Assembly (NCBI GenBank): GCA_038131655.1
Contig: JAYPPT010000002.1
Location: forward strand, 52,517-116,516
Direction of reading: 5' to 3'
Source of the DNA: Alphaproteobacteria bacterium
GTDB taxonomy: Bacteria; Pseudomonadota; Alphaproteobacteria; SMXQ01
DNA: 64,000 bases
The notes below the pieces were generated by a model. That model was not told where the DNA came from, made no database searches, and saw only the letters and a list, made by a program, of their open reading frames with translations. Positions 42,286-63,083 of the stretch are shown piece after piece. The position numbers and the translations under genes were made by a program. The first letter of the stretch is position 1, and each line of letters opens with the position of its first letter.

Positions 42286-42361
42286 GGCGGAGTAGCTCAG
42301 CTGGTTAGAGCAGTGGAATCATAATCCATGTGTCGGGGTTCAAATCCCTCCTCCGCTACCA
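42286..42361 (+). tRNA. tRNA-Met (anticodon CAT; elongator type, tRNA-Ile2 not excluded)
   Basis: 76-nt cloverleaf: acceptor GGCGGAG/CTCCGCT, D-arm GCTC..GAGC, anticodon stem GTGGA/TCCAT with loop ATCATAA, T-loop TTCAAAT, encoded CCA. Confidence 0.85.
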
Positions 42362-42587: not shown

Positions 42588-43010
42588 CTAGAGCGCGACC
42601 TGCTGCTGGCGGTCCTTCGTGAAGTAATCGCGATTATTCAATTGGCCCTTGCCGGCGATGACGATCTCGTCGCCCGGCTTCTTCACCTGGTAAAGCAGGG
42701 CGGGCGCTTCGCTTTCATTGTGCAGCTGATAATACTGCCCACCGGGAATCAGCACGCACATACCTTCTTCAAGGTGATGAACCTCCGGCTCCGCATCCTC
42801 GCTTTTCTTGGTTCGAACTGTCAGCTTACCTTTCAGGCATAAGAACGATTGTGACGTTCCCTTGTGGTAATGGAACTCGTTACGTCCGCCCGGTGAGTAA
42901 AGGTTAAGTGCGATCAGAAGATCCTCCTCCTTCGACAGCAGCTTGCGCTGGCGCGGGCGGTCTGGGTTCTGCATATCGATCGAATCGAAAATCCTGGTAA
43001 CCTGAGCCAT
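42588..43010 (-). CDS. Small cupin-domain protein
   Basis: Start MAQVTRIFDSIDM at 43010. Cupin motif ...NEFHYHKG...QSF. GC is lower than surrounding genes. Confidence 0.55.
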   Translation of the reverse strand: MAQVTRIFDSIDMQNPDRPRQRKLLSKEEDLLIALNLYSPGGRNEFHYHKGTSQSFLCLKGKLTVRTKKSEDAEPEVHHLEEGMCVLIPGGQYYQLHNESEAPALLYQVKKPGDEIVIAGKGQLNNRDYFTKDRQQQVAL

Positions 43011-43137
43011 GTCTGTTCCTCCATCGTTGGCGGCCTTTGCGGACTGTTGGTTGGAAGTGTAGCCGAATATACTCCCCTGAAAGGGCAAAAAGAAGGGGAG
43101 GGCTAGGCCCTCCCCATGATTGGTGCCATGGCTTGGG

Positions 43138-44391
43138 TTATTTGCAGTTGACTTCCTTTGCCTCGGCGCCGACGCGCAAGTAGACAAAAGTACAGGTCAT
43201 GCCTGGCTTGATATTCTTACGCTTGTTTTTTTTGCCGCCAATGGTGACCTTGGTGCGCGAACCGGAAACCTTGGCTGATACTTCCTTGCCCTCGTGCATC
43301 AGTGAGATCTTGCGACCACCTCTTTCGGTCTTGGTGACCTTGCCGGTGTGGTTGAGTATAGTGACTTTGGTCGTGACTTTGTTGGCATCGATGATCAGCT
43401 GCTTGACCTTAGGAGAAACATTCAGGGCCTCCTGGAATGCCTTGTCGACTTCCTCGCCGTAGCCCGCTTCGATGTCCCGGCCCTGGGCCTTGGCAGCCTT
43501 GCGTGCTTCCGGGTTTCCCAGTGCATACTTGTAGGCGGCACGGAGCGCCTCAAGACGGTCCGCCTTGATGCCCGGAGGTGCACCGGTCACCCGCCAGAAT
43601 TCACCGGCGAGGGTGGTCAGCTTGGCCAGTTGCAGGCCGTCTGGATCCTTTATCAGTTCATAGGCCGTGGGCACGTTCGGCAGGTCCGGATCCCGCTTGG
43701 TTGAATAGGTGGTGAGAATGCGGCCGCGGCCCTGCTTGTGGAAGTCGATATTGCTTTCGATCGACCCCATCATTACGTCGATTTCGCCGCGCATCATGGC
43801 AAGATGCGCGTCCGGTCCATCATAGCCCGGAATCATGCGGAACTTCAGGTTCATCGCGGCTTCCGACATCTTGGCGAAGACCCAGCGTCCCGAGCCCGGT
43901 CCACCGGTTGCCATTTTCAACGCCTTGCCCGCCGCGCGCATCTCGTCGATGCTTTTGTAAGGCAGCTTGCCGTTAACCATGATCAGCTGTGGCGAGCTCG
44001 AGGCCTTACCAAGGAAGTTCATTTTAGCGAGATCGTACTTGACGCCCTTCTTTTTCAGGATCTGGTTGAAGAACATCGCCGTGTTGAACGTGCCCATGGT
44101 TAGGCCGTCGGGCTTCGAATTGTAAATGAAGTTAGTGCCGATGATGTGGCCGGCGCCAGGCATATTGCGGACCACGAAGGTTGAGCCCTTCAGGTATTGG
44201 GACATGTACTTGGCAACCAGTCGGCCATAGAAGTCGAAACCGCCGCCGGCGCCGGTCGCGACGATATAGGTCGCGGTCTTTCCCTTGAAATAGGCGACGT
44301 CTTCCTTGGCTTTGGCGCTGTTCACTCCACCGAATCCGACCGCCGCGGCGAGTGTCACCGCGATGGCGATGGATGTCTTGCTGGGGTACAT
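43138..44391 (-). CDS. TctC/Bug-family periplasmic solute-binding protein with a conserved Cys-pair C-terminal extension (paralog A1)
   Basis: AGGAGG SD then MYPSKTSIAIAV signal peptide. Bug-type motifs ATGAGGGFDFYGR and FVVRNMPGAGHIIG. C-terminus ...SGSRTKVTIGGKKNKRKNIKPGMTCTFVYLRVGAEAKEVNCK. Confidence 0.7.
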   Translation of the reverse strand: MYPSKTSIAIAVTLAAAVGFGGVNSAKAKEDVAYFKGKTATYIVATGAGGGFDFYGRLVAKYMSQYLKGSTFVVRNMPGAGHIIGTNFIYNSKPDGLTMGTFNTAMFFNQILKKKGVKYDLAKMNFLGKASSSPQLIMVNGKLPYKSIDEMRAAGKALKMATGGPGSGRWVFAKMSEAAMNLKFRMIPGYDGPDAHLAMMRGEIDVMMGSIESNIDFHKQGRGRILTTYSTKRDPDLPNVPTAYELIKDPDGLQLAKLTTLAGEFWRVTGAPPGIKADRLEALRAAYKYALGNPEARKAAKAQGRDIEAGYGEEVDKAFQEALNVSPKVKQLIIDANKVTTKVTILNHTGKVTKTERGGRKISLMHEGKEVSAKVSGSRTKVTIGGKKNKRKNIKPGMTCTFVYLRVGAEAKEVNCK

Positions 44392-44588
44392 ACTGATGCC
44401 TCCTTTGACAGATGATTTGGGGATAGCGCCGGACCGGTCTTTGGACCGATTGTGGGCAGCAATTGACAGCCCGCGTCCTACTCGCCAAATTCTTTCGACG
44501 GTAACACGGGAGCAAACGGTGAGGCAAACCGTCCGTATCCCGCGGGAATTCTGTGAACAACCCGGCAAAAATAAAACAGGGGAAAAAA

Positions 44589-45830
44589 ATGAAAAAACGC
44601 CTTCAGGTAGAACGACGCACGCAGCGGTGGCAGGAACAGCGCTGGATTCTCGATGCGGTGATCGCCACCGTAGGTCCCGAATGGGACCAGGGCCGCATGT
44701 CCAAGGGCGCGCGAGCCGGATCAGAAGGTGCGGCGGCTTTCCGCACTGCATCATCGCGGATGAAGAGATTCAACGATATCGGTCCCGAATTTACCCGTCA
44801 GGGCCGGAAGGCGGAAGCTCGCGCAAAACAGTACGAGAAAGAAAAGCGCATGGTATCAGCGCGCGAGCAATATTTTATCGCCTCGCTTCTTTATGCATCG
44901 GCCCAGTGGCCTTATTTCGATTTCGACGACACCGTGGCAGAACTGGAAGAACGGATGAATGCGACGTTCGCCAAGTACTGTAAATACGCACCGCAGCCGA
45001 CACGCCGCGTCGAGATACCATTTGGTAAGGGCAAGACCCTTCCTGCGTATCTGCATTTGCCACGCAAGCCGGTAAGGGGTGAGCGCTTTCCGGTGACCCT
45101 GGTGACCGGCGGCATGGACGGCTCCAAGGAAAGCATGGTGTCAATGTACGGCGATCCGGCGTTGCAGCGCGGCTTCGCGGTATTGGCGCTGGACGGGCCG
45201 GGGCAGGGCGAATGCCCTGGCCGGGGTATCTACCTGACCCCGACCAACTTCGGCGATGCTGGTGCAGCTTGTGTTGATTGGCTGTGCGACCAGCCGGAGA
45301 TAGATCCGGACGGCGTCGTTATCCGCGGCTCCTCCTTCGGCACCTACTTCGGGACCCAGGCTGCAGCGGGGCTCGGCAACCGTATCAAGGGTGTCTGTGC
45401 CACTGGCATTTGCCAGGAACCGGGTGCGCATACCATCTTCAACATGGCGTCGCCCACCTTCAAGGTGCGCTTCATGTTCATGTGCGGCTTCGAGGACGAA
45501 GCCAAGTTCGACAAGTTCGTCCAAGGCTTCGACCTACGCAAGGTCGCAGCCAAGGTCAAATGTCCGTACATGATCGTGGCCGGTGAGGACGATCAGCTTT
45601 CCCCGGTGGAGCACACCTACAAGCTATTCGAGAAGATCAAGGCGCCGCGTCGCCTGGTGGTTTACGAAAGTGCGAACCATTCAATCAAGGGGGGACCAGC
45701 GGCTGCCAATGGCGAGAACCGGGAAACCATGATGATGGATTGGATGCTCGACCGGGTGACGGGCAAATCGATGAAATCCGAGCTCTGGTATATCGATTCT
45801 GCCGGGAAGGCCAACATTACCAGGTATTAG
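44589..45830 (+). CDS. Alpha/beta-hydrolase (DHPON-hydrolase/FrsA-like family)
   Basis: ~414 aa with the GSSFGTY nucleophile elbow. Family members include C-C bond hydrolases. Confidence 0.65.
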   Translation: MKKRLQVERRTQRWQEQRWILDAVIATVGPEWDQGRMSKGARAGSEGAAAFRTASSRMKRFNDIGPEFTRQGRKAEARAKQYEKEKRMVSAREQYFIASLLYASAQWPYFDFDDTVAELEERMNATFAKYCKYAPQPTRRVEIPFGKGKTLPAYLHLPRKPVRGERFPVTLVTGGMDGSKESMVSMYGDPALQRGFAVLALDGPGQGECPGRGIYLTPTNFGDAGAACVDWLCDQPEIDPDGVVIRGSSFGTYFGTQAAAGLGNRIKGVCATGICQEPGAHTIFNMASPTFKVRFMFMCGFEDEAKFDKFVQGFDLRKVAAKVKCPYMIVAGEDDQLSPVEHTYKLFEKIKAPRRLVVYESANHSIKGGPAAANGENRETMMMDWMLDRVTGKSMKSELWYIDSAGKANITRY

Positions 45831-45871
45831 GTAGTTGAAACCGGGGGCGAGCCTCCTGTTGGCGAAGCCGA

Positions 45872-46063
45872 TTGCAGAGGTGGGGCCGGGTGATCGTGAT
45901 CAGCAATGCAGGACGGGCGGTTTCGGCCAATGCCTTTGAGCCGCGCACCAAGGTTACCGTCGGCGGCAAACCGGCTAAGCGTTCGGCCCTCAAGCAGGGC
46001 GTGACCTGTACTTTCCACTATCCGAGCCCCGGCGCTGAGGCTGAGCAGATCATTTCCAAATAG
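45872..46063 (+). pseudogene. Stand-alone degenerate copy of the TctC-paralog C-terminal extension
   Basis: Encodes ...EPRTKVTVGGKPAKRSALKQGVTCTFHYPSPGAEAEQIISK. Nucleotide-level similarity to the 3' ends of the A-type paralogs; no upstream TctC domain; second Cys lost. Confidence 0.5.
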
Positions 46064-46092
46064 CCCGGTATCTATTAATTTTAGCGACTTAG

Positions 46093-46120
46093 GCGGGCCC
46101 GAAAGGCCCGCCCATCTTTC
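46093..46120 (+). terminator. Candidate terminator hairpin
   Basis: ggcgggcc-cgaaa-ggcccgcc followed by catctttc. Confidence 0.35.
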
Positions 46121-46257
46121 TGTCGGTCTCTGTCGCCTTGCGGCAGGAAGAGCTAGCGGTTAGTTTTTTGCCTTAGCCAGGGGTCCTAGCGCGCGAGATC
46201 AAGCAATAAAATGCGCGCAGTTGACGGGCGCTTGCCTCGATAAACAGGGAGCCAAGC

Positions 46258-47496
46258 ATGCACAGCATAAACACCAAGAGAATAGTATTGGGCCTCGCGG
46301 CCGGCATGGCCATGTCGTTGGCGGGGACCGCGGGGGCCACCGACAAAGGCAAGGCCTATTTCAACGGCAAGACGGTGGAATGGATCGTCGCCACGGCGCC
46401 CGGCGGCGGCCACGATTTCTGGGGGCGGCTGGTGGCGGGCTCGATGCAGAAGCATCTTCCCGGCTCGACCTTCGTGGTAAAGAACCGGCCCGGTGCCGGC
46501 CATGTTATCGGCGCCAACCTGATCTACAACGCCAAGCCCAACGGGCTGACCCTGGGCAATTTCACCACGGGATTGCTCTATTCGTCGCTGCTCAAGACCA
46601 AGGGTATCCGCTTCGACTTGGCCAAGATGTCGTGGCTCGGCAAGGTAACGTCCGAACGCCGCGTCCTGTCCGTGGGACAGAAATCCGAATTCAAGTCCTT
46701 TCAGGACATGATCGATTCCAAGCGGATCATTAAGTTCTCGGCCACCGGGGTGGGCTCCAACACCCATACGGAAGCCTTCCTGCTGGGCACGGCCTTCAAG
46801 ATCCCGTTCAGGATCATCACCGGCTACACCAGTTCTTCGGCGGCGCTGGCCATCCTGCGGGGTGAGATAGACGCCATGACCGGGGGCGAGGATTCGGCCG
46901 CGTCCTATGAGAAGGCCGGGCATATCCGCAACGTCATGATGATCGGCGCGGGCAAGCCCGGCGTTGTCGATGCCGCCGATTACGCCAAGACGCCGCTGGC
47001 CAAGTCCGTGGTCAGGCTGATGGGGGCCATGGGCACGTTGTCGCGCATCATGGCCGGCCCCCCGGCCATCCCGGCGGACCGCCTGGCGGCGCTGCGCACG
47101 GCGTTCCGCGAATCGCTCGAAAGCCCGTCGCTGCAGGCGGCGGCAAAAAAGGCGGGCCGCGGGATCGAGCCGGCCTATGGCGATGATGTCGGCCGCCTTG
47201 TCGCGGAACTGATGGACCAGCCGCCGGAGGTGGTGGCGATGCTCAATGAGCTGTCCAAGGTCCGGGTTGCAATGGTCAAGCACGAGGGCAAGGTCACCCA
47301 GACCAAGCGGGGCGGGAGGCAGGTATTCATCAGCCACAAGGGCAAGGAGGTCTGGGCCAAGATCTCCGGTTCGCGCACCAAGGTGACGGTCAATGGCAAG
47401 CCCGCCAAGCGCAAGGCGATCAAGGTGGGCATGACCTGCGCGTTTTCCTACCCGCGCGCCAATGCCGAGGCCAAGAAGGTTGACTGTAGAAAATAA
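46258..47496 (+). CDS. TctC/Bug-family binding protein with Cys-pair C-terminal extension (paralog A2)
   Basis: Signal peptide. Motifs ATAPGGGHDFWGR and FVVKNRPGAGHVIG. C-terminus ...SGSRTKVTVNGKPAKRKAIKVGMTCAFSYPRANAEAKKVDCRK. Confidence 0.75.
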   Translation: MHSINTKRIVLGLAAGMAMSLAGTAGATDKGKAYFNGKTVEWIVATAPGGGHDFWGRLVAGSMQKHLPGSTFVVKNRPGAGHVIGANLIYNAKPNGLTLGNFTTGLLYSSLLKTKGIRFDLAKMSWLGKVTSERRVLSVGQKSEFKSFQDMIDSKRIIKFSATGVGSNTHTEAFLLGTAFKIPFRIITGYTSSSAALAILRGEIDAMTGGEDSAASYEKAGHIRNVMMIGAGKPGVVDAADYAKTPLAKSVVRLMGAMGTLSRIMAGPPAIPADRLAALRTAFRESLESPSLQAAAKKAGRGIEPAYGDDVGRLVAELMDQPPEVVAMLNELSKVRVAMVKHEGKVTQTKRGGRQVFISHKGKEVWAKISGSRTKVTVNGKPAKRKAIKVGMTCAFSYPRANAEAKKVDCRK

Positions 47497-47699
47497 AATA
47501 AAATCATAACAGTTGGTTACATTCAACTTCTAAAGTTAATTCTTTGGATGAGCCGGGCCGGGTTTCCGGGGTTGAACCGACCCGGCCCAGCGGCTAGCCT
47601 TGGGCTCAATACAGGGAAAGACCTCGAATAATATAATATGCAACTGCGGTTTAAACGCATGTGTCAGGGGTCTTTCGGCACAAGAACTGGGAGACGAAA

Positions 47700-48938
47700 A
47701 TGAAACATCCTTCACAGAACTGGGCCGGCTACGCGATCGCGGCGGCGGCAGGACTGGCGCTTGCCGCGCCGGCGGTGGCGGCCGAAAAGGGCGCGGCTTA
47801 TTTCAAGGGCAAGACGGTCGAATGGATCGTTACCACGGCGCCGGGCGGTGGCCACGATTTCTGGGGCCGGTTGCTGTCCAACACCATGGAAAAGAAGCTG
47901 CCGGGCTCGACCTTCGTGGTCAAGAACCGGCCGGGTGCCGGGCATATCATCGGCGTCAACCTGATCTACAGTTCCACCCCCAACGGGCTGACGATGGGTA
48001 ATTTCACCACCGGTCTGGCCTATTCCCAGGTGTTGAAGAAGAAGGGCATCCGCTTCGATCTGGCCAAGATGTCGTGGCTCGGCAAGCTGGCGTCGGAGCC
48101 GCGCACCATGTCGGTGGCGAAGAATTCGCCCTTCAAGAATTTCGAAGACATTCTCAAGTCCAAGCGGGTGCTGAAGTTCTCGGCTTCCGGCGTGGGGTCC
48201 GGCTCCTATACGGACAGTTTCATGGTCGGCCAGGCTTTCGGCCTGCCGTACCGGATCATTACCGGCTATTCCGGCTCCCAGTCGGCGCTGGCGATGCTGC
48301 GCGGCGAAGTGGACATTCTCATGGGTAGCGAGGATTCGGCGCTGGCCTACCAGCGTGCCGGTCAGCTGCGCATCGTCATGCAGGTCGGTGGCGGCGTGAA
48401 AGGCGTGCAGGACGGCCGGGATTACGCCAACAACCCGCAGGCCAAGGCGGTGATGCGGCTGCTGTCGCAGATGGGGGCGCTGTCGCGCATTGCCGCCGGT
48501 CCGCCGAATATCCCCGCTGATCGCCTTGCGGCGCTGCGGGCCGCGTTCAAGGCTTCGACCGAGGATGCGGAATTCCGCGCCGCGGCCAAGCGCGCGGGGC
48601 GTTCGATCGAGCCCGCCTTCGGCGAGGACGTTCAGAAAATGATCGTCGCACTGATGGATCAGCCGCCGGAAATCGTGGACCTGCTCAAGAAGCTGTCCAC
48701 GGTCAAGGTGGACATGATCCAGCACGTCGGTCCGGTGACCCAGATCAAGCGGGGTGGGCGCCAGGTGTACATCTCCAACAAGGGCAAAGAGGTGTTCGCC
48801 AAGATTTCCGGTTCGCGCACCCGAGTGACCGTTGACAACAAGAAGGCCAAGAGAAAGGCCATCAAAAAAGGGATGACCTGCACCTTCACCTATCCTCGGG
48901 CGAATGCCGAGGCGAAGAAGGTGGATTGCAAGAGCTAG
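47700..48938 (+). CDS. TctC/Bug-family binding protein with Cys-pair C-terminal extension (paralog A3)
   Basis: ~75% identical to A2. C-terminus ...SGSRTRVTVDNKKAKRKAIKKGMTCTFTYPRANAEAKKVDCKS. Confidence 0.75.
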   Translation: MKHPSQNWAGYAIAAAAGLALAAPAVAAEKGAAYFKGKTVEWIVTTAPGGGHDFWGRLLSNTMEKKLPGSTFVVKNRPGAGHIIGVNLIYSSTPNGLTMGNFTTGLAYSQVLKKKGIRFDLAKMSWLGKLASEPRTMSVAKNSPFKNFEDILKSKRVLKFSASGVGSGSYTDSFMVGQAFGLPYRIITGYSGSQSALAMLRGEVDILMGSEDSALAYQRAGQLRIVMQVGGGVKGVQDGRDYANNPQAKAVMRLLSQMGALSRIAAGPPNIPADRLAALRAAFKASTEDAEFRAAAKRAGRSIEPAFGEDVQKMIVALMDQPPEIVDLLKKLSTVKVDMIQHVGPVTQIKRGGRQVYISNKGKEVFAKISGSRTRVTVDNKKAKRKAIKKGMTCTFTYPRANAEAKKVDCKS

Positions 48939-48974
48939 GTAGCTTGCGCGCTACCGCTTGGCGGGTTCCGCTTC

Positions 48975-48993
48975 GGCGGGCCCGCCTTTTTCT
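48975..48993 (+). terminator. Rho-independent terminator
   Basis: ggcggg/cccgcc followed by ttttt. Confidence 0.55.
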
Positions 48994-49125
48994 TTGCCAG
49001 GAGCCCGGAATCCGCCGGGCGGCGGGATCGCGGTTGATCGGGCACGGGGGCTCGGCTAGCATCCGGAGGCTAACTCGCGCCCTCGCAACCAAAAAAAACA
49101 AGCGCGGAAACTATGGGGAGATTTC

Positions 49126-49524
49126 ATGGCCAAGATTCGCCATTTTGCTATCGTTTCCACGGACCCGGGCAAGCTCGCGGATTTTTACGAGCGGGTCTTC
49201 GAGATGGAGGTCCTGCACCGCGCCGATAACGGCAGCGTGTTCATGACCGACGGTTATCTCAACCTCGCCATCTTGCTCAACAAGGCCGAGGGCAAGCCCA
49301 GTGGCCTGAATCATTTCGGCTTTCATGTCGAGGATTCGGCGGAAATCGCGCGCCGGCTTGAAAGCGAAGGCCTGCCGGGACCGGCGAAGCGCCCCGCCGA
49401 TCGCCATTACGCGCAGTTCCGGGCCTTTGACCCGGACGGCAACAATTTCGATCTTTCAGAAAACGGGTACGAAACCGTACGGCCCGATCGCATGTCGTCG
49501 GTCAAGGCAAAAACGCCGGCCTGA
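49126..49524 (+). CDS. VOC/glyoxalase-family protein
   Basis: 132 aa: MAKIRHFAIVSTDPGKLADFYERVFEM...LNHFGFHVED. Confidence 0.75.
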   Translation: MAKIRHFAIVSTDPGKLADFYERVFEMEVLHRADNGSVFMTDGYLNLAILLNKAEGKPSGLNHFGFHVEDSAEIARRLESEGLPGPAKRPADRHYAQFRAFDPDGNNFDLSENGYETVRPDRMSSVKAKTPA

Positions 49525-49559
49525 CGCATCCCACTTATTCCACGAACAGGGAGAGAGAT

Positions 49560-50855
49560 ATGAGCATCATTCAAAAACTGGCTTTCGCTGGTGTCGCGGC
49601 AGGAGCGTTCGCTATTGCCGCGCAGGCACCGGTGCAGGCTGCGGATTTTTATAAGGGCAAGACCATCAAGGTTGTCATCGGCTATAGCGCTGGCGGTGGT
49701 TACGATATCTACGCCCGCGCCGTTGCGCGTTATCTCGGTCGCTATGTGCCGGGCAATCCAAACGTCATTTCCCAGAATATGACCGGCGCGGGCAGTGTGC
49801 GCGCCGCCAATTATCTTTACGTTCAGGCGCCGAAGGACGGCACCCAGTTCGGTACGTTCTCTCGCGGGTTGCCCCTCCTGGCACTGACCGGTGCGGACAA
49901 GAACGTGCGTTTCGATCCGACCAAGTTCAAATGGATTGGCAGTACGTCGAGCTATGCCGATGACGCCTATGTGTTTACCGTGCGGCGCGACAAGGGCATC
50001 ACGTCGGTGCGTGAGTTGATGGGCAAGAATGCCAAGCTGGTTACCTTCGGTTCGACCAACTACGGTTCCACCGGGTTCGATGTTCCGCTGGTGCTGAAGG
50101 ATACGTTGGGCCTCAACATCAAGCTGGTTCATGGTTATCCCGGCGGTAGTGCCATCAACCTGGCGATCGAGCGCAAGGAAATGGATGGCCGTACCCAGGG
50201 CCTGTCGTCACTGAGTTCAATGGGCGGCGACTGGAAAAAGGACCGTATTGGGCTGGTGCAGTTCGCCCGCGGAAATGTCCGTCACCCGGACCTGGCTGAC
50301 GTGCCAACGGCGCGTGAACTTGCGACCCGCGAAGACGACCGCAGGCTGATCGACATGCTGGAAACGGCGTTCTTCATGGCGCGTCCGTTTGCCGCCCCTC
50401 CGGGGGTTCCCGTGGACCGCATCAAGGTCCTGCGTACCGCTTTCATGGCGGCCCAGAAAGATCCGAAGTACGTCAAGGACATGGGTAAGCTGGGCATGGA
50501 CATAAGCCCTAAAAGCGGCGAAGAGGTTGAACAGATCGTCGCCCGAATTATGAGCACGCCCAAGCCCTTGCTCGCGCGCTACAAGTCGATCATTGAAAAT
50601 CCTAAGGCGGAGCCACGCAAGGTCAACTGGATCCTGTCCGAAGGCACGATCAGCAAGGTCGGCAAGAAGGGCCGCATCCAGATCAAGGTCGCGGGCAAGT
50701 CCAAGGCCTTCAAGACCCGGATGCGCAAGGGCTATACCAAGATCACGGTCAACGGCAAGAAGGCCAAGATCAAGTCGGTCAAGGAAGGTATGACCTGTAA
50801 GATCTGGCACGAAGGGCCTAAGTCCACTGCCGGCAAGGCTGAATGCACCAAATAG
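49560..50855 (+). CDS. TctC/Bug-family binding protein with Cys-pair C-terminal extension (paralog B1)
   Basis: Signal peptide. Motifs GYSAGGGYDIYAR and NMTGAGSVRAANY. C-terminus ...KITVNGKKAKIKSVKEGMTCKIWHEGPKSTAGKAECTK. Confidence 0.75.
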   Translation: MSIIQKLAFAGVAAGAFAIAAQAPVQAADFYKGKTIKVVIGYSAGGGYDIYARAVARYLGRYVPGNPNVISQNMTGAGSVRAANYLYVQAPKDGTQFGTFSRGLPLLALTGADKNVRFDPTKFKWIGSTSSYADDAYVFTVRRDKGITSVRELMGKNAKLVTFGSTNYGSTGFDVPLVLKDTLGLNIKLVHGYPGGSAINLAIERKEMDGRTQGLSSLSSMGGDWKKDRIGLVQFARGNVRHPDLADVPTARELATREDDRRLIDMLETAFFMARPFAAPPGVPVDRIKVLRTAFMAAQKDPKYVKDMGKLGMDISPKSGEEVEQIVARIMSTPKPLLARYKSIIENPKAEPRKVNWILSEGTISKVGKKGRIQIKVAGKSKAFKTRMRKGYTKITVNGKKAKIKSVKEGMTCKIWHEGPKSTAGKAECTK

Positions 50856-50874
50856 ATTCGGTTCAGGGGCGAAG

Positions 50875-50899
50875 AGGCGGGACCGTGTTCCCGCCTTTT
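50875..50899 (+). terminator. Rho-independent terminator
   Basis: ggcggg-N8-cccgcc followed by ttttt. Confidence 0.55.
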
Positions 50900-51041
50900 T
50901 GTGCCCAAGGTGCGGTAAATATGCAACATTTTGTTGTATTGATCCCACATCCACAAGTCGTTAGCATCCGCCCAAGAAATCAAGAAAGGCCGCTGAACCT
51001 CACCCAAGAGGGCGGCGTTGATATTTGAAAGGCAGGGAAAT

Positions 51042-52340
51042 ATGTCAACCCATCTCCATTTGGGGCGAGTTTCGCTCGCCCTCGTGTTCGGGCTCGGGGT
51101 TGCCGCTCATGGCGCGGCGCAGGTCGGGGCCGCTGAATTGTACGAAGGCAAGACCGTCAAGGTGATGATCGGTTACGGGGCCGGCGGCGGCTACGATACT
51201 TATGGTCGCTTCGTCGCACGCAATATCGGCAGGCATTTGCCGGGCAAGCCCAGCACCATCACCCAGAACATGCCCGGCGCCGGTTCGATCGCCGTGGTCA
51301 ACTATATCTACAAGCAGGGTGCCAAGAATGGCACCGAGTTCGCCATTTTCGCCCGCTCCGCGCCGATTCTCGCGCTGGCCGGAAAAAGCAAGCAGGCCCG
51401 GTTCGATCCGCTGAAGCTCACCTGGGTCGGCAGCTCGTCGAGCTACAAGGGCGAGGCCTACATGATGATGGTGCGCAAGGACACGGGCATCACTTCCATC
51501 AACGACTTGCGCAAGGCCAAGAAGGAGCTTCGTTTCGCCGCAACCTCGTTTGGCTCCGACGGCACCGACGTGCCGATCGTGCTGCGCGAAGTCCTTGGCC
51601 TCAACATCGTGCCGCTGCGCGGTTATCCGGGCGGCAATTCGCTTTATCTCGCGGTCGAGCGCGGTGAAGCGCAGGGCCGCATGACGGGCTTTGCCTCAAT
51701 GAAGACGGCGCAGCCGGGATGGCTCAAGCCGGACGCCCCGGTGCGGCCGATCCTTCAGTTCGCCACCCAGACCCGCCTGCCGGAATTTCCCGACGTGCCG
51801 ACCGCACGCGAGATTGCGACCAAGGCGGATGACCTGGCCCTGATCGAGATGCTGGAAGCGCCGTTCTACATGGCCCGGCCTTTTGCCGCGCCGCCGGACC
51901 TGCCCGCGGAGATCACCAAGGCCCTGCGTACGGGCTTCATGAAGGCGCACCAGGATCCGGTCGCATTGAAGGAAGCGAAGAAGCTGCGTCTCGACCTGTC
52001 CCCCGCTGACGGTGCCGAAGTGCATAAGGTCATCGAGCGCCTGGCGGCGATGCCGAAGTCGCTTTACGACCGCTATAACGACATCCTGAAGGACCCGAAG
52101 TCGCCGATCCGCCAGGTCAAGTGGCAGATCGTGGAGGGTGAGCTTTCCAAGATTGCGAAGAAGGGCCGGGTCGAACTGGTCTCCGGCGGCAAGACCCACA
52201 AGGTCCGGGTCACCGGCGGCTACACCGAGCTTACGATCAAGGGCAAGGCCGCGAAGGACAAGGCCCTGAAGACCGGCATGACCTGCAAGGTCTGGTACGA
52301 AGGCAACGGCTCCGCCGCCGGCAAGATGGAATGCAAATAA
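51042..52340 (+). CDS. TctC/Bug-family binding protein with Cys-pair C-terminal extension (paralog B2)
   Basis: MSTHLHLGRVSLALVFG... Motifs GYGAGGGYDTYGR and NMPGAGSIAVVNY. C-terminus ...LTIKGKAAKDKALKTGMTCKVWYEGNGSAAGKMECK. Confidence 0.75.
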   Translation: MSTHLHLGRVSLALVFGLGVAAHGAAQVGAAELYEGKTVKVMIGYGAGGGYDTYGRFVARNIGRHLPGKPSTITQNMPGAGSIAVVNYIYKQGAKNGTEFAIFARSAPILALAGKSKQARFDPLKLTWVGSSSSYKGEAYMMMVRKDTGITSINDLRKAKKELRFAATSFGSDGTDVPIVLREVLGLNIVPLRGYPGGNSLYLAVERGEAQGRMTGFASMKTAQPGWLKPDAPVRPILQFATQTRLPEFPDVPTAREIATKADDLALIEMLEAPFYMARPFAAPPDLPAEITKALRTGFMKAHQDPVALKEAKKLRLDLSPADGAEVHKVIERLAAMPKSLYDRYNDILKDPKSPIRQVKWQIVEGELSKIAKKGRVELVSGGKTHKVRVTGGYTELTIKGKAAKDKALKTGMTCKVWYEGNGSAAGKMECK

Positions 52341-52373
52341 CCTTCTGATCGGCGATCGCCGAAACGACTGCTG

Positions 52374-52405
52374 GGGCGCGAATCTTCGGATTCGCGCTCT
52401 TTTTT
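52374..52405 (+). terminator. Rho-independent terminator
   Basis: gcgcgaatc-ttcg-gattcgcgc followed by tctttttt. Confidence 0.6.
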
Positions 52406-52594
52406 GGCCGAAAAGCCACTTTATAAAATATATGTTTTTGATAACCCATTGAAATTAAATAATCTTAAGTTCTTAAGACGCTCCATGCGTTGCCCCGGCC
52501 CAAGAAAGCTTGTTAGCATCTTCTTATTCATGGCGGAGGCGACAAGGCGCTGAAGAAACCCGGCCCCGCCGCACAGAAGAACTGGGAGACTGAA

Positions 52595-53908
52595 ATGAGT
52601 AAATTCCATCATCTGGCCCGCATTCCTGCCTTTGCGGGTGTCGCGGCCCTTGTCGGGGCTGCTGCCCTGGCGCTTCCCTCAAATCCGGCATCGGCGGAAA
52701 TGTTTTCCGGCAAGACCGTTCGCGTGCTTATCGGCTACGCCGCCGGTGGCGGCTACGACCGTTACGGTCGCCAGGTCGCGCGCCATATCGGCAAGTACCT
52801 GCCGGGCAAGCCCAATGTCGTCGCCGTGAATATGCCGGGCGCGGGCAGTTACAAGGTGGTCAACTACATCTACAACACTGCGCCGAAGGACGGCACGGAG
52901 TTCGCGATTTTTGCCCGCTCCGTGCCCATTCTTGCGTTTTCGGGCAAGTTCGACAAAACCCGCTTTGATCCGCTGAAGCTGACCTGGATCGGCACGTCGT
53001 CCAGCTACAAGGGCGAAGCCTATCTTGTGGTGGTGCGCAAGGACACCGGCGTGAAAAATATCGAGGATCTTCGCAAGATCAAGAAGACGGTAATGTTCTC
53101 GGCCACGGCTTTCGGTTCCGACGGTACCGACGTGCCGATCGTGCTGCGTGAAGTGCTTGGCCTCAATGTTCAGGCGTTGCGCGGTTACCCTGGCGGCAAC
53201 TCGCTTTACCTTGCGGTGGACCGTGGCGAGACCCAGGGACGCATGGTCGGCTACGCCTCGGTCAAGACGGCGCATCCCGAATGGCTGAAGCCGGACAGCC
53301 CGATCAATGTCGTGCTGCAATTCGCCACGCGCGAGCGTCTGCCCGCCTTCCCCAATGCGCCGACGGCTTACGAGCTTGCCCGCAACGACGCGGACCGTGC
53401 GTTGATCGACATGCTGGAAGCGCCGTTCTACATGGCGCGCCCGTTCGCGGGCCCGCCTGGCATGCCGGCGGCGAATACCTCGGCGGTGCGCGCGGCCTTC
53501 ATGGCGGCGCATGAGGACCCGGTGTACAAGAAGGAAGCGAAGAAGTTGCGCTTGCTCACCAGTCCCCAGGACGGTGCCACCGTGCAGAACCTGGTGGCCA
53601 AGCTCGGCAAGATGTCGCCGGACCTTTATGCGCGTTACACGCGAATCCTGAAGAACCCGGATTCCCCGGTCCGCGTCATCAAGTGGGTCAAGTTTTCCGG
53701 CAAGATCTCGAAAACCGGCAAGAAGGGCCGCTTCGTGGTCAAGACCGCCGAGGGCAAGAGCCACAAGCTGCGTGCCCGCGGCAGCTACACCAAGATCAAG
53801 ATCAACGGCAAGAAAGCCAAGTCAAAGGCGCTCAAGAAGGGCATGGAGTGCAATGTCTGGTGGGAAGGTCCGAAGACCACGCCCGGCCGGGTAGAGTGCA
53901 CGAAGTAA
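52595..53908 (+). CDS. TctC/Bug-family binding protein with Cys-pair C-terminal extension (paralog B3)
   Basis: Motifs GYAAGGGYDRYGR and NMPGAGSYKVVNY. C-terminus ...KIKINGKKAKSKALKKGMECNVWWEGPKTTPGRVECTK. Confidence 0.75.
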   Translation: MSKFHHLARIPAFAGVAALVGAAALALPSNPASAEMFSGKTVRVLIGYAAGGGYDRYGRQVARHIGKYLPGKPNVVAVNMPGAGSYKVVNYIYNTAPKDGTEFAIFARSVPILAFSGKFDKTRFDPLKLTWIGTSSSYKGEAYLVVVRKDTGVKNIEDLRKIKKTVMFSATAFGSDGTDVPIVLREVLGLNVQALRGYPGGNSLYLAVDRGETQGRMVGYASVKTAHPEWLKPDSPINVVLQFATRERLPAFPNAPTAYELARNDADRALIDMLEAPFYMARPFAGPPGMPAANTSAVRAAFMAAHEDPVYKKEAKKLRLLTSPQDGATVQNLVAKLGKMSPDLYARYTRILKNPDSPVRVIKWVKFSGKISKTGKKGRFVVKTAEGKSHKLRARGSYTKIKINGKKAKSKALKKGMECNVWWEGPKTTPGRVECTK

Positions 53909-53931
53909 CGTTCTGCGCTTGAAGTCATTGA

Positions 53932-53962
53932 GGGCGCGGGTTTTGGCCCGCGCCCTTTTTTT
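53932..53962. terminator. Bidirectional Rho-independent terminator between paralog B3 and the convergent UbiD-family gene
   Basis: gggcgcggg-ttttgg-cccgcgccc followed by ttttttt. Confidence 0.6.
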
Positions 53963-53964
53963 GC

Positions 53965-55416
53965 CTAGAGCCCGAACTTGTCGCGCACCTTGGCGCGCAT
54001 GTCGTCGGAGAACACGTTGACGGCCGGGAATTCGTCGCGCCAGCGGTAGGGGCGGCAGGCATCGATCAGGACCCGGTCCATGGTGTAGCCGTGGGGCGAG
54101 CGGTCATCGGGGGCGATGGCCGGATCGGCGGGCGATGTCCAGACGCTCTTGACGATATCCACGCCTTCACGCGGATTGCAGCGGGTGGCGACGGCCCAGA
54201 TGACATCGTTGATGTTCGACGCCTCGACATCGTCGTCGACGACGATGACGAACTTGCCGCCGTAGGCCCCGGCGCGGGCCGAAGTCGCGGCCAGCGCGGT
54301 CTGCTTGGCGTGCCCGGCATAGGACTGGCGGATGGAGACCACGGTGAAGGGACCGGATTGCCCGCCGTAGATATGACCCCAGACGCCGGTGATGCCGGGA
54401 ATGCCGGCGGCCTCAAGCTGGTCCCACAGTTGCGCCGCGCCCAGCGGCACGGAAATGTAATTGTTGGGCGGCTTCAGCGGCGGCACGCCGAGGATGATCG
54501 GCTCATCCCGCCAATAGGCCGCCTTGACGTGCATCAGCGGCACTTCGCCGGTGGTGGTGTCGGCGAAATAGCCGGGCCATTCGCCGAAGGGGCCTTCCTT
54601 GGGCAGCACCTCGTCGCTCGGCGGCGGCACCTCGCCCTCGATCACGATCTCGGCGCTGGCGGGAATAGGCAGGCCATAAAGCGGGCTGGCGACGGTTTCC
54701 ACCGGCGCGCCCTGCAGCCAGCCGGCGATTTCATATTCCTTCTCGCCGGGCGCGACGGGCAGTTGCGCGGCCAGGAAGATCGAGGTCGCGTGGCCGAAGC
54801 TGATGGCCACGGGGCAGGCTTCGCCCCGCGCGTGGTAGGCGTCCATCGCCAGGCGCCCGTGCTTGCCCTTGTTCATCTTGACGCTGATGCGGTCCTTGCC
54901 CTGCACCATGCAGCGGTAGGTGCCGATATTGACCTGGCCGCTGTCGGGGTCGCGGGTGATGACCGCCGATCCGGTGCCGAGATAGCGTCCGCCGTCGTGT
55001 TCGTGCCAGATGGGGGCGGGAAAGATGCCGAGATCAAGCGCCGCACCCTCGGCGCGGTTCTCGAACACCGGGCCGTCCTTGACCATCACCGGGGCGATGG
55101 GTTTCTTCTCGCGGATACGCTGGCGCCAGGCGTTGAGCAGGCCAACCCCGGAAAGCGTGTCCGGCAGTCCCAGGCTGGCGGCGGCGCGGGCGTGGGTGCG
55201 AAAGACGTTGGAAAAGACCCGGAAGCCCTTGGGGTAATCCTTGATCTCGTCGAACAGGAGGGCAGGGCCTTCTTCCTCGCCCAGGATTTCGGTCACGGCG
55301 CCGATTTCAAGTTTCCAGTCGGCGCCCTTGATTTCCCGCAGGTCGCCGCTCTCGCGCAGTTCCGCGATAAAGGCGCGCAGGTCGCTTTGCCGGTTGCTTC
55401 GGTTGTTCGCGCTCAT
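53965..55416 (-). CDS. UbiD-family (prFMN-dependent) decarboxylase
   Basis: Start at MSANNRS. ~483 aa. UbiD-type body (…PGYFADTTTGEVPLMHV…, …FVIVVDDDVE…). Confidence 0.8.
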   Translation of the reverse strand: MSANNRSNRQSDLRAFIAELRESGDLREIKGADWKLEIGAVTEILGEEEGPALLFDEIKDYPKGFRVFSNVFRTHARAAASLGLPDTLSGVGLLNAWRQRIREKKPIAPVMVKDGPVFENRAEGAALDLGIFPAPIWHEHDGGRYLGTGSAVITRDPDSGQVNIGTYRCMVQGKDRISVKMNKGKHGRLAMDAYHARGEACPVAISFGHATSIFLAAQLPVAPGEKEYEIAGWLQGAPVETVASPLYGLPIPASAEIVIEGEVPPPSDEVLPKEGPFGEWPGYFADTTTGEVPLMHVKAAYWRDEPIILGVPPLKPPNNYISVPLGAAQLWDQLEAAGIPGITGVWGHIYGGQSGPFTVVSIRQSYAGHAKQTALAATSARAGAYGGKFVIVVDDDVEASNINDVIWAVATRCNPREGVDIVKSVWTSPADPAIAPDDRSPHGYTMDRVLIDACRPYRWRDEFPAVNVFSDDMRAKVRDKFGL

Positions 55417-55447: not shown

Positions 55448-56929
55448 TCAGCTCGAGGCGGGAAACACCAGCGATTTGATGACCACGGGTACCGCACCGG
55501 ACGAAGGAATAAGTTCGCCGATGTCGATGTAGTCGAATTCCTTGAGCTCGATCCCATCAATGGACACGACAGCATCGTCGAGCTGAATTTCCTCGGTCAT
55601 GTGCAGCCCGAGAAGGCCGCCGATATCGCTGTCGTTGACCATGATCAACGGATGGCCCTTTTCGCAATGCTTCTTCAGTCCGGCGACGACGCCGGTGCAG
55701 AAATCGTGCAGCCGCTTGAAGGTTGCCGAGCCGCCCCACTTGAACGAAACCGCCACCGGCTGCTCCGCGTCCGTCAGGTCTAGGCGTGTCAGCGATGCCT
55801 CGATTTCCTGGGCGACCTTGGCCGGGTCGATTTCCTCGGCCGTGAGGTCGATATCGGGCGCGATCACCGGCACGTTGCGAATAGGCACGGCGCTGGTCGG
55901 GTTGATGAAGATCGTGTTGCCCGACACCTGCACGGTGTATTGCGATGCGCCGATGACGGTCGCGCGAATGGTGGCCTTGGGTTCGTGAATCTTGATGCCG
56001 AGCGCATCCACCGCCTTGCGGATGGCCTTGGCTACGAAGGGGCCGAGGTCGCCAAAAGCTGTCGTCGCCTTGTCGTAGATGAATTCCGAAACCCCGCCGG
56101 AAAACGTGATCGCATCCACCTTGCCACGGTAGGTAAGCGGCGGCAGGCGCAGAAGCTTGATGGCTTCGGGCGTCATGTCTTTCAGGGTCACGACCTCCAT
56201 CAGACGCGCGATCATGCGATCGACAAATGCCTGAAGTTGGGTGTCCGTCGGCTTGACGCCGAATCCGATTTCAATGCCCGCTTCCTTGGCATAGGTATGG
56301 GCGGCGTCTTCGATGCGGTTGATCTTGCCGTCGTCGTCCATGGCCAGAAGCCGGGCGCCGACGTCAATGGCGGTGACTTCGTGAACCTTGCCGCCTTCAC
56401 AGATAGCGACCTTGGAGGTGCCGCCGCCGATATCGATGTTCATCACCACGCCATCGAGCGACGCAGACAACGCCACCGCGCCGGAACCATGGGCCGCCAT
56501 GGTGGTTTCCAGCCCGTCACCGGCCGAAACCGCGACGAACTTTCCGGCATCGGCCGCGAACAGGTCGGCAATGGCGCGGGCATTGCTGCGGCGCACGGCA
56601 ACGCCGGTGAGGATCAGGGCGCCGGTGTCGATATCCGACCGCTTGAGGCCGCTTTTCGTATAGCAGCCGTCAATGAATGATCCCAGCGCGTCCGAATCGA
56701 TCACCTCGCCGTCCACATAGGGGGTGAGCAGGATGTCGGATTCGGCCAGAATTTCGCGCTCTACGATCTTGTAGCGCGAGCCGATGCATTCCATGTGCAG
56801 GCGCGAGAAAACCAGGTGCGACGTGGACGAACCGATGTCCACGCCGACGCTGGTCAGGTCGAATTCACCTTCGTCAACGATGTGCCGCTCGGCGCTGGTG
56901 AACGCCGCGCGAATCTCTCTCTGTGCCAT
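55448..56929 (-). CDS. EutA-family ASKHA ATPase (ethanolamine ammonia-lyase reactivase-like)
   Basis: 493 aa. SVGVDIGSSTSHLVFSRL and NIDIGGGTSKVAI are collinear with EutA phosphate-binding motifs. Confidence 0.7.
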   Translation of the reverse strand: MAQREIRAAFTSAERHIVDEGEFDLTSVGVDIGSSTSHLVFSRLHMECIGSRYKIVEREILAESDILLTPYVDGEVIDSDALGSFIDGCYTKSGLKRSDIDTGALILTGVAVRRSNARAIADLFAADAGKFVAVSAGDGLETTMAAHGSGAVALSASLDGVVMNIDIGGGTSKVAICEGGKVHEVTAIDVGARLLAMDDDGKINRIEDAAHTYAKEAGIEIGFGVKPTDTQLQAFVDRMIARLMEVVTLKDMTPEAIKLLRLPPLTYRGKVDAITFSGGVSEFIYDKATTAFGDLGPFVAKAIRKAVDALGIKIHEPKATIRATVIGASQYTVQVSGNTIFINPTSAVPIRNVPVIAPDIDLTAEEIDPAKVAQEIEASLTRLDLTDAEQPVAVSFKWGGSATFKRLHDFCTGVVAGLKKHCEKGHPLIMVNDSDIGGLLGLHMTEEIQLDDAVVSIDGIELKEFDYIDIGELIPSSGAVPVVIKSLVFPASS

Positions 56930-56932
56930 ACG

Positions 56933-58162
56933 CTACTCGGCGGCTTTGTTCGGCGCGACGTAGAGCTCCGGCTCCATGCGGGACTTGCCGCCGTCTTCCG
57001 CGAGGGTCGATTCGAATTCCTTGCGGAGATACGGGTCTTCCATGTCGTAGGGAATGGCCGTGCCGCCGTCGCGGATATCGATGGCGCCGTAGTCGTTCAT
57101 CTGGCTGCCGGGCGCACCGGAGCGGGAGTTCTTGCCCGGATGGACGGGGCCGAACCACGCGGTCAGGCGCAGCGGGCCGGACGACACGCCGAAGTGCTGG
57201 TGATACCACTCGCCGCCCATGGGCGCGGCGGTGACCATGCCCACCGGCTCGTAATCCTGGCGCATAACCTCGGCGGCCTTGCCGTCCTTCCATGGCGTCG
57301 GGCCAAGGCGGTCGGGCCAAGTGTAAGTGTAGCCCTTGCCCTTGAGGCAGATCAGCACCGCCGCCGAACCGTGGGCGTGGGCCTTCGAATAGCGGCCGGT
57401 TTCATGCTGGGCGATCCACAGGTAGAAATTCTGGCGCGCCATGTGCGGCTCGATCCGGCGATAGCCCGGCGAGCGACGGTTATCCAGCGGCAGTTCGCAG
57501 TTGATGACATCGGGCAGGATGTTGGTCTGCTTCATCGCCAGGCCGCGAATGGGATCGGCGAAGATGTCGTCGTTGGGCTTGTAGTAGTCCTCGGCGTTCG
57601 GATCGAAGCGGTCGCGGAAGGCGTAGGGGCAGTTGAAGATGAAATCCGCGTTGCGGTAGGTGTTGAACGCTTCCGGCGCGAGCGAGCCGCCGAGCAGCTT
57701 TGCCGGCTGCGACGACGCGTTGATCAGGCGGTACTTGGCGTTCAGCGGAATGGCGAACATCGAACCGGCCTGCCATTCGAACACGTGCTTTTTCGTTTCG
57801 TCGCCGTCTTCCCAGACCTCGGTGGTGCCGCGGCCTTCGATCACCAGGAACTGCTGTTCGTAGATGTGCTTGACCGCGTTGGTCGCCCCGGCACCGGGAA
57901 CTTCCAGCACGAACGATCCCCACAGGCCTTCGGTGCCCCAAAGCTGGATGAAAGTGCCGCGCCCGCCGTAGAACTTCCAGTCGCCGAGCGGCAGATCCTG
58001 GCAGCGCTGCACGCCGAGGCCGCGGAAGCACGGGATGCACTGGGCTTCCATCCAGTCGTCATAAGGCAGATTGGGCCGTTCGAAGGTGCCGAAGCCGGAC
58101 TTCTTCTTGTTGTCCGTCGGTTCGGTCCAGTGGATGTGTTCATCGGGCATGTCGTGCGGCAT
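56933..58162 (-). CDS. Bicupin protein (gentisate/ring-cleaving dioxygenase-like)
   Basis: 409 aa with two cupin modules (…HAHGSAAVLICLKGKGYT… and …EWYHQHFG…). It lies 3 nt upstream of the EutA-like gene, suggesting an operon. Confidence 0.55.
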   Translation of the reverse strand: MPHDMPDEHIHWTEPTDNKKKSGFGTFERPNLPYDDWMEAQCIPCFRGLGVQRCQDLPLGDWKFYGGRGTFIQLWGTEGLWGSFVLEVPGAGATNAVKHIYEQQFLVIEGRGTTEVWEDGDETKKHVFEWQAGSMFAIPLNAKYRLINASSQPAKLLGGSLAPEAFNTYRNADFIFNCPYAFRDRFDPNAEDYYKPNDDIFADPIRGLAMKQTNILPDVINCELPLDNRRSPGYRRIEPHMARQNFYLWIAQHETGRYSKAHAHGSAAVLICLKGKGYTYTWPDRLGPTPWKDGKAAEVMRQDYEPVGMVTAAPMGGEWYHQHFGVSSGPLRLTAWFGPVHPGKNSRSGAPGSQMNDYGAIDIRDGGTAIPYDMEDPYLRKEFESTLAEDGGKSRMEPELYVAPNKAAE

Positions 58163-63070: not shown

Positions 63071-63083
63071 GGTAATCCTCGGG

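Follow-up and report, generated by a model that had tools for sequence, protein, structure and literature searches.

Six genes for secreted TTT (tripartite tricarboxylate transporter)-type binding proteins, commonly called TctC or Bug proteins, form an array in a 64-kb stretch of contig JAYPPT010000002.1 from an alphaproteobacterium (assembly GCA_038131655.1; the whole stretch is referred to as the window). The open reading frames (ORFs), designated A1 to A3 and B1 to B3, were found at the coordinates and on the strands reported in an earlier, sequence-only reading of the same DNA (Table 1). The longest ORF for A1 reaches 44754; the ATG at 44391, with AAGGAGG before it, gives a normal signal peptide, supporting the start that had been called. 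By inspection, all six N-termini lack a cysteine or lipobox and combine a positively charged n-region with a hydrophobic core and an A-x-A site, and thus look like Sec signal peptides, in agreement with the proposed secretion of the proteins.

Aligned end to end, the six proteins share 51 invariant columns, and both the alignment and the pairwise identities uphold the two subfamilies recognized earlier. A1 is 43-45% identical to A2 and A3, which are 64-67% identical to each other; the corresponding values are 49-50% for B1 against B2 and B3, and 64% for B2 against B3. Identity between the subfamilies is only 26-32%, yet alignment of the A and B profiles with hhalign (probability 100%, E = 1.9e-67, 383 columns) places their relatedness far above chance. 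The subfamily motifs quoted in the sequence-only reading were recovered in five of the proteins: GYxAGGGYDxYxR and NMxGAGS are present in B1 to B3, and FVVKNRPGAGH in A2 and A3, along with ATAPGGGHDFWGR in A2 and TTAPGGGHDFWGR in A3. A1 departs from that wording, with ATGAGGGFDFYGR and FVVRNMPGAGH instead. Database searches returned more than 1,500 and more than 5,800 matches for the two subfamilies, and the wider protein family comes almost wholly from uncultured Alphaproteobacteria.

The only family supported by the profile and fold searches is that of the TTT binding proteins. Subfamily A lies above the gathering score of the Pfam TctC model (PF03401, 27 bits), whereas B1 is at the threshold, B2 falls below it and B3 has no match (Table 1); B3, which is named TctC in its Joint Genome Institute source, is nevertheless a full-length homolog of B1, B2 and the A proteins. 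An AlphaFold2 model was built for A2 from a 96-sequence alignment (predicted local distance difference test score [pLDDT] 90.9, predicted template modelling score 0.80). When the model was compared with the PDB by Foldseek, TTT binding proteins took all of the first 17 places (E = 1e-16 to 4.5e-19, approximately 310 columns, target-normalised template modelling [TM] score up to 0.84), among them TphC, the terephthalate-binding protein (TBP) of I. sakaiensis, Bug27, BugD, BugE, MatC, AdpC and 4x9t. The next class of binding proteins follows at approximately 1e-8, so that some 8 orders of magnitude in E-value separate the two, with PhnD-type structures at approximately 1e-7 as against 1e-19 for TTT proteins. 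For subfamily B, all 11 distinct matches of the profile among PDB sequences are TTT binding proteins (E = 2e-8 to 4e-4). The published ligand-loop motif of the family is P-F-x-A-G-G-x-x-D (PMC8556258), and G49, G50, D53 and R57, invariant in the 96 homologs, correspond to its core and the arginine that follows; in this loop subfamily B keeps Y-x-A-G-G-G-Y-D, whereas subfamily A has A-T-A-P-G-G-G-H-D, with the P and F positions replaced. By contrast, the TAXI model (NCBIfam TIGR02122, cut-off 84 bits) gave only N-terminal partial matches of 16.6-30.3 bits in the six proteins, and the PhnD model (PF12974, cut-off 27 bits) matched B2 alone, at 19.5 bits, with NCBIfam PhnD matches likewise below threshold. 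Based on the Pfam scores, the fold matches of A2, the profile matches of subfamily B and the conserved motif core, both subfamilies are divergent but genuine TTT receptors.

The earlier description of the six as full-length TctC proteins thus stands with respect to the family, but they are not plain TctC proteins. The usual description of a secondary-transporter binding protein comprises two lobes plus a hinge and no further part. The solved TTT binding proteins have 288-302 residues, and an architecture of two lobes only (approximately 300-330 aa) does not account for the window proteins, which at 412-437 aa exceed a normal TctC by approximately 100 aa. Each consists of a Sec signal peptide, a two-lobed type II binding-protein body of approximately 300 aa and a C-terminal oligonucleotide/oligosaccharide-binding (OB) fold of approximately 75 aa. 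These last approximately 75 residues are all-beta, with a pLDDT of approximately 95 in the full A2 model and 93.4 when modelled alone, and their best Foldseek match in the PDB is E. coli CusF (E = 1.5e-3, TM score 0.61-0.66). When the C-terminal domains of the six proteins were searched in isolation against Pfam, with E allowed up to 10, just two chance-level matches came up, neither of them to CusF nor to DUF5666. The domain profile nonetheless retrieves DUF5666 proteins and aligns with a DUF5666-type repeat in hhalign (probability 86%, E = 5e-6), which points to remote homology rather than membership. The domain has no Pfam model and is not described in any library, and literature searches on DUF5666 and on TctC combined with an OB fold found nothing relevant.

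Across the 96 aligned sequences, G391, C394 and C410 of the domain are invariant, and G344, G353, G362, T374, G380, K381, K384 and M392 are conserved in at least 90%. In the A2 model the cysteine pair sits on the final two strands, and because these strands are adjacent, C394 and C410 probably form a structural disulfide. The domain contains 13-19 lysines, its net charge ranges from +10 to +20 and its isoelectric point (pI) is 9.9-10.7; the binding-protein body is likewise basic (pI 9.6-9.9). The OB-domain alignment has no conserved His or Met-x-Met at the ligand positions of CusF, whose metal ligands are His, Trp and Met-x-Met. Thus, the domain resembles CusF (PF11604) and DUF5666 (PF18914) in being a small five-stranded periplasmic OB-type barrel with the common strand motif K-x-G-[MD]-x-[VC]-x-[FV]-x-[YF], but differs from both in its invariant cysteine pair, its very high lysine content, the loss of conservation at the CusF metal ligands and its location, which is either the very C-terminal end of a larger protein of the periplasm or a free-standing gene product beside tctAB.

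The distribution of the domain was followed by a sequence-profile search and in the loci of relatives. For the latter, one genome per GTDB species was scanned with the subfamily-A alignment, so that B-type loci are under-sampled; 259 stretches were confirmed to encode a relative, of which 80 were kept, representing 74 distinct loci, to which all locus counts refer (L-numbers denote individual loci of relatives' genomes). All 80 derive from metagenome-assembled genomes (MAGs), mostly of uncultured Alphaproteobacteria and a few of Burkholderiales. The profile search, covering 1.84 billion representatives, yielded 587 clusters (50% identity) at E up to 1e-3, 235 of them scoring 1e-10 or better. 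Besides receptors of approximately 410-470 aa with the domain at the extreme C-terminus, the architectures comprise receptors with two tandem copies (P0242, P0243 and P0268), short secreted stand-alone proteins (e.g., P0245, 114 aa) and long proteins with 5-15 repeats that carry the Pfam label DUF5666 or CusF_Ec. The domain also ends an ABC-type SBP_bac_8 binding protein (L019:5752-7152, minus strand) and a HlyD/CusB-type membrane-fusion adaptor (L034:11374-12762, minus strand), indicating that the module is not confined to TTT receptors.

No TctA or TctB, the permease subunits with 12 and 4 transmembrane helices, respectively, was found in Pfam scans of 46 ORFs of the window, the six array genes included, and a six-frame hydropathy screen revealed no credible ORF for a polytopic membrane protein in the 64 kb, the one flagged ORF being antisense to RNase E. 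Both results agree with the sequence-only reading, which had noted the lack of tctA and tctB, and the six genes are orphans in the classical Bug sense. Neither of the outcomes that the sequence-only reading had named as contradicting it, assignment to another binding-protein family or a conventional operon with tctAB, was encountered in the analysis of the 64 kb. The loci that share the gene order of the window also have no tctAB within 10 kb. Among the 74 loci, however, 69 encode at least 1 receptor with a C-terminal OB domain and 26 a TctA homolog, which in 24 lies within 1.5 kb of an OB-bearing receptor, together with TctB or as fused TctAB (Pfam matches to TctA of 383-405 bits, to TctB, and to fused TctA-TctB proteins of approximately 700 aa). 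The presence of tctAB beside relatives in 24 of the 74 loci suggests that this receptor family works with TctAB.

In addition, a free-standing gene of approximately 85-110 aa, encoding a signal peptide and an OB domain with the motif ...SGSRT.VTI.G....R....K.GM.C....C[K], occurs in 15 loci (L036-L041, L047, L056, L061-L063, L067, L075 and L076 among them), 11 of which contain TctA. This gene adjoins receptor genes, either at the end of an array or, often, between tctB and a receptor. A close parallel to the window is provided by L037-L041, where 4-6 genes for binding proteins, together with a free OB gene, come after tctA-tctB: the receptors belong to the same family, have the same OB tail and are tandem paralogs. 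In those loci, however, the genes are operonic with the permease, receptors with and without the OB domain are mixed and only A-like members occur, whereas the window array is permease-less, contains both A and B subfamilies and is interleaved with enzymes. Collectively, these occurrences mark the OB domain as a periplasmic module that is added to other proteins and is genetically linked with TTT systems. The TctB proteins beside OB receptors, or the TctB part of fused TctAB, have a conserved charged insertion of approximately 55 aa between transmembrane helices 2 and 3, with the motif DPRTDFE+YM.E....H...L..D..KEK.E.LVEDHS (L022, L028, L034, L056, L061 and L062), which is probably cytoplasmic. 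We considered this insertion as a periplasmic dock for the basic OB domain and rejected it, because the positive-inside rule puts the loop in the cytoplasm.

Table 1. Features of the array and its surroundings (window coordinates; identities refer to the window protein).
Feature	Position	Strand	Description	Basis
tRNA-Met(CAT)	42286..42361	+	Borders the cluster on the left, with MnmA on the other side; GC drops here	
Small cupin	42588..43010	-	Cupin	Pfam Cupin_2; 64-83% identical in L004, L010, L012-L014, L016, L020
Hairpin after A1	43095..43115	-	Terminator-like	9 pairs, 8 GC
A1	43138..44391	-	TctC-type TTT binding protein, 417 aa, with Sec signal peptide (ending AKA) and C-terminal OB domain	Pfam TctC 76.1 bits; orthologs 76-79% in L004, L011, L012; Shine-Dalgarno AAGGAGG
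OB domain and linker of A1	43141..43383	-		C-terminal-domain hidden Markov model (HMM), 101 bits
FrsA-like hydrolase	44553..45830	+	Alpha/beta-hydrolase (esterase)	Pfam FrsA-like, Peptidase_S9 and others; 82-86% identical in L004, L010-L014, L016
Pseudogene remnant	45887..46063	+	Final 58 codons, covering the OB domain, of what was a seventh A-type gene	Frame-3 translation; C-terminal HMM, 62 bits
Hairpin after remnant	46092..46112	+	Terminator-like	
A2	46258..47496	+	TTT binding protein with OB domain, 412 aa	Pfam TctC 54.3 bits
OB domain and linker of A2	47254..47493	+	Residues ~338-412 structured	
TTGAAC-N17-TAGCCT	47572..47600	+	Promoter-like, 5' of A3	
A3	47700..48938	+	TTT binding protein with OB domain, 412 aa	Pfam TctC 67.1 bits; orthologs 79% in L004, L011, L012
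OB domain of A3	48696..48935	+		Alignment, domain HMM
TTGATC-N17-TAGCAT	49034..49062	+	Promoter-like, 5' of VOC and B1	
VOC protein	49126..49524	+	VOC/glyoxalase fold	Pfam Glyoxalase; 77% in L020, absent from L004
B1	49560..50855	+	Subfamily-B TTT binding protein with OB domain, 431 aa	Pfam TctC 27.6 bits; ortholog 74% in L020
OB domain of B1	50592..50852	+		Alignment, domain HMM
TTGATC-N17-TAGCAT	50939..50967	+	Promoter-like, 5' of B2	
B2	51042..52340	+	Subfamily-B TTT binding protein with OB domain, 432 aa	Pfam TctC 20.3 bits; orthologs 75-80% in L012, L014
OB domain of B2	52086..52337	+		Alignment, domain HMM
Hairpin after B2	52373..52400	+	Terminator-like	12 pairs
TTGCCC-N18-TAGCAT	52490..52519	+	Promoter-like, 5' of B3	
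B3	52595..53908	+	Subfamily-B TTT binding protein with OB domain, 437 aa	No Pfam match
OB domain of B3	53648..53905	+		Alignment, domain HMM
Hairpin after B3	53930..53957	+	Terminator-like, between convergent B3 and UbiD	12 pairs, 9 GC
UbiD-family protein	53965..55416	-	(De)carboxylase	Pfam UbiD N, core and C domains
EutA-like protein	55448..56929	-	ASKHA ATPase	Pfam EutA 411 bits; 75-81% identical in syntenic loci
409-aa protein	56933..58162	-		One weak cupin match; 85-86% identical in syntenic loci
Acyl-CoA synthetase	60896-63310	-	NDP-forming, 804 aa	CoA_binding_2, Succ_CoA_lig, ATP-grasp_5; also flanks the cluster in L004

Each of the six genes is preceded, 6-9 nt before the ATG, by a Shine-Dalgarno sequence (GGAG/GGGAG), as had been noted earlier. 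The claim that most genes have their own terminator was borne out as well: hairpins with a T-run follow A1, B2 and B3, a weaker one follows B1 and another was seen by eye after A3, whereas A2 has no terminator-like hairpin. Promoter-like sites of the form TTGNNN-N16-18-TAGC[AC]T occur just 4 times in the window when both strands are considered, all on the plus strand and all in intergenic regions of the array; the shared motif can be written as TTGAYC-N17-[CT]TAGCAT. These array-only sites, together with the terminators, suggest that most of the genes would be separate transcription units sharing one promoter type. B1, which starts 35 nt downstream of the VOC gene, is probably co-transcribed with it.

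The cupin, alpha/beta-hydrolase and VOC genes described as interleaved with the array were all confirmed by Pfam, and further enzymes follow it. The nearest NCBIfam models of the UbiD-family protein are phenylphosphate carboxylase beta and VdcC, although for both it scores under the equivalog cut-off; a UbiX-like gene was not found in the window, and the UbiD gene is absent from the otherwise syntenic L010, L012, L013 and L014. The EutA-like gene has no ethanolamine ammonia-lyase gene near it and is translationally coupled to the gene for the 409-aa protein, which has no relative in NCBIfam or the PDB. This pair lies beside the array in L004 and L010-L014 (75-86% identity) and is also found in a Burkholderiales MAG (L074; 54-61%). 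A literature search on EutA with UbiD and cupin found nothing relevant. Acyl-CoA dehydrogenase, OmpW and an NDP-forming acyl-CoA synthetase are also among the conserved neighbours; a 614-aa ORF antisense to the synthetase gene (61178-63022, plus strand) has no family match and was dismissed as spurious. The set of co-conserved neighbour enzymes suggests that the substrates of the cluster would be hydrophobic or aromatic carboxylic acids or their esters. Elsewhere in the window, RNase E/G appears as two overlapping ORFs on the minus strand (18858-20129 and 19994-21430), each with part of the RNase_E_G domain, and this split (18858-21430) represents a frameshift or an assembly error.

The same arrangement, with 4-7 receptor genes, recurs in L004, L005, L008, L010-L014, L016 and L020, which come from different MAG species. 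The order is cupin (minus), A (minus), FrsA-like (plus), A, A, B, B, B, UbiD (minus), EutA-like (minus) and 409-aa protein (minus), and the cluster enzymes of the syntenic loci are 74-89% identical to those of the window. Thus, the array, which the sequence-only reading had called unusually compact and proposed to check for strain specificity, is neither: relatives carry 4-7 copies in the same layout, and the cluster is syntenic in at least 8 other alphaproteobacterial MAGs. The remnant between the FrsA-like gene and A2 has lost the terminal cysteine and has no start codon or signal peptide, but keeps its own terminator; its best match (64%) comes from L004, where it directly follows the FrsA-like gene and so has the same relative position. 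It is a visible trace of gene turnover.

Taken together, we consider it likely that the six proteins are orphan TTT receptors which serve a remote TctAB permease and are equipped with an OB tail. Each receptor would capture a carboxylate-type substrate and pass it on to TctA/TctB, with the permease genes at another site in the genome; this arrangement is established for TphC with TpiBA and for the majority of Bordetella Bug proteins. With two old subfamilies and diverged members in them, the cell probably has several specificities for related compounds, and the captured compounds would feed the co-conserved enzymes of the cluster. Several observations weigh against this explanation. TctA and TctB of the source genome were not seen, within the 64-kb window; B2 and B3 score under the Pfam TctC gathering score; and the substrate class is deduced from the gene neighbourhood. 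None of the solved TTT binding proteins has a comparable OB tail, so that the window proteins may behave unlike classical Bug proteins. The disulfide of the tail is proposed from the placement of the cysteines, and the mixed arrays of L037-L041 imply that the domain is not required by every receptor of a system.

The layout itself is of a known kind. In Bordetella pertussis, 76-79 Bug genes coexist with two tctAB sets (PMC5812351), and the TphC gene lies in its catabolic operon, with tpiBA elsewhere (PMC8556258). The window proteins resemble the Bordetella Bug proteins and the TphC-TpiBA systems of Comamonas and Ideonella in their two-lobed fold, the GGxxD core of the ligand loop and their signal peptides, as well as in the multiple paralogous copies and the placement of the genes amid catabolic genes, with a tctAB-type permease elsewhere (PMC8556258, PMC5812351). 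They differ in sharing only 17-22% identity with the solved structures, with subfamily B at or under the Pfam threshold, in the replacement of the motif P and F in subfamily A, in the basic character of both protein parts (pI 9.6-10.7) and, above all, in the extra domain of approximately 75 aa, absent from all solved TTT binding proteins. Added domains are known from BP0403, a TAXI-GltS lipoprotein of B. pertussis with extra N-terminal globular and helical dimerisation domains (PMC12344293). Like the window proteins, BP0403 is a secondary-transporter binding protein with added domains that do not bind ligand and without the expected membrane genes adjoining (PMC12344293); unlike it, the window proteins are of the TTT rather than the TAXI class, carry a C-terminal OB domain and are soluble, and their relatives are linked to canonical tctAB. 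What sets the array apart is the undescribed OB tail and its genetic link to tctAB.

That orphan receptors need not serve a TctAB permease at all was weighed in two forms, both of which we regard as improbable. The six proteins might act mainly as sensors, the loaded protein docking on a membrane sensor kinase or chemoreceptor and thereby inducing the catabolic genes. Such a role would suit orphan genes without a permease in 64 kb and a cluster without an obvious dedicated regulator, and the stimulation of signalling proteins by solute-binding proteins is known (PMC8050422). However, no sensor kinase, chemoreceptor or response regulator is encoded in or near the cluster, either here or in the syntenic loci, relatives lie directly beside tctA/tctB in 24 of the 74 loci, and six to seven separately expressed sensors would be odd for one small set of enzymes. 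About as improbable is that the receptors feed a permease other than TctAB, with the OB tail as adaptor, in the manner of the elongated TAXI protein of Bordetella with GltS, a case in which an elongated binding protein with extra domains uses an unrelated symporter (PMC12344293). The occurrence of the OB domain on an ABC-type binding protein and a HlyD-type adaptor, which frees it from any one transporter class, and the lack of tctAB within 10 kb in the close syntenic loci fit this possibility, but no other candidate permease is conserved beside the arrays, and the more distant members with the same OB tail are operonic with tctA-tctB. Slightly less probable again is that the tail is a CusF-type metal-binding domain, in which case the proteins would deal with metals or metal-carboxylate complexes. 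The best Foldseek match is CusF, the repeat-protein relatives match Pfam CusF_Ec, Met392, Cys394 and Cys410 are conserved, a HlyD/CusB-type adaptor bears the domain and, according to a 2026 preprint, BctC binds citrate chelated with Zn or Ni. Nevertheless, the six domains have no Pfam CusF match even at E up to 10, the CusF ligand positions are not conserved, the cysteines occupy adjacent strands at the terminus, the placement expected of a structural disulfide in the periplasm, and the neighbouring genes concern organic-acid catabolism and not metal resistance.

The remaining alternative concerns the origin rather than the role of the genes and is the least credible of those considered, namely that the genes were amplified locally and recently in this strain only, perhaps on a genomic island linked to a tRNA. 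The genes are indeed in tandem, GC at 42-54 kb is 0.57-0.61 compared with 0.62-0.68 in most of the remaining window, a tRNA-Met, the only Rfam match, stands at the left border, and the pseudogene remnant attests to ongoing turnover. Yet the window paralogs are 26-67% identical, whereas orthologs in other MAG species reach 74-80% (A1 76-79%, A3 79%, B2 75-80%, B1 74%), compared with 45-67% between these genes and their own closest paralogs in the window, so that the duplications predate the split of several MAG species. The gene order recurs in L004, L010-L014, L016 and L020, and neither an integrase nor a transposase came to light in the window. The same tRNA-Met precedes the cluster in L004, L010 and L013, in the last together with MnmA; on the basis of this synteny we rejected a recently inserted tRNA-linked island, and the low GC is no mark of recent insertion, although the lysine-rich proteins may contribute to it. 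Local duplication, as proposed in the sequence-only reading, is misleading as a description of the array: judged from the sequence comparisons, the duplications are old and the family evolves by birth and death.

For the favoured explanation, orphan receptors with a remote TctAB, the role of the OB tail is a separate matter. Tentatively, and with rather less confidence than in the receptor assignment, we suggest that the tail may be a docking or tethering module and not a ligand binder; the receptor would be held at an anionic envelope surface or at a partner OB protein near the permease. More speculative still is the idea that the cationic, Cys-stapled OB domain constitutes an unrecognised periplasmic docking module, which would recruit solute receptors to their membrane machinery or tether them to the envelope, possibly through OB-OB contacts.

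Without the OB domain, the finding would equal an ordinary orphan-Bug array. The array also marks a conserved, uncharacterised catabolic cluster with UbiD, the EutA-like and 409-aa proteins and an esterase. Since the description of the Bug family it has been an open question how a few TctAB permeases can be shared among dozens of orphan TTT receptors, and the OB domain, which also exists as a separate gene linked to tctAB, offers a testable handle on the targeting of receptors to the permease or to the envelope. If the docking proposal is true, the OB module would be a fourth component of some binding-protein-dependent secondary transporters and would offer an explanation of how one permease is located and shared by many orphan receptors.

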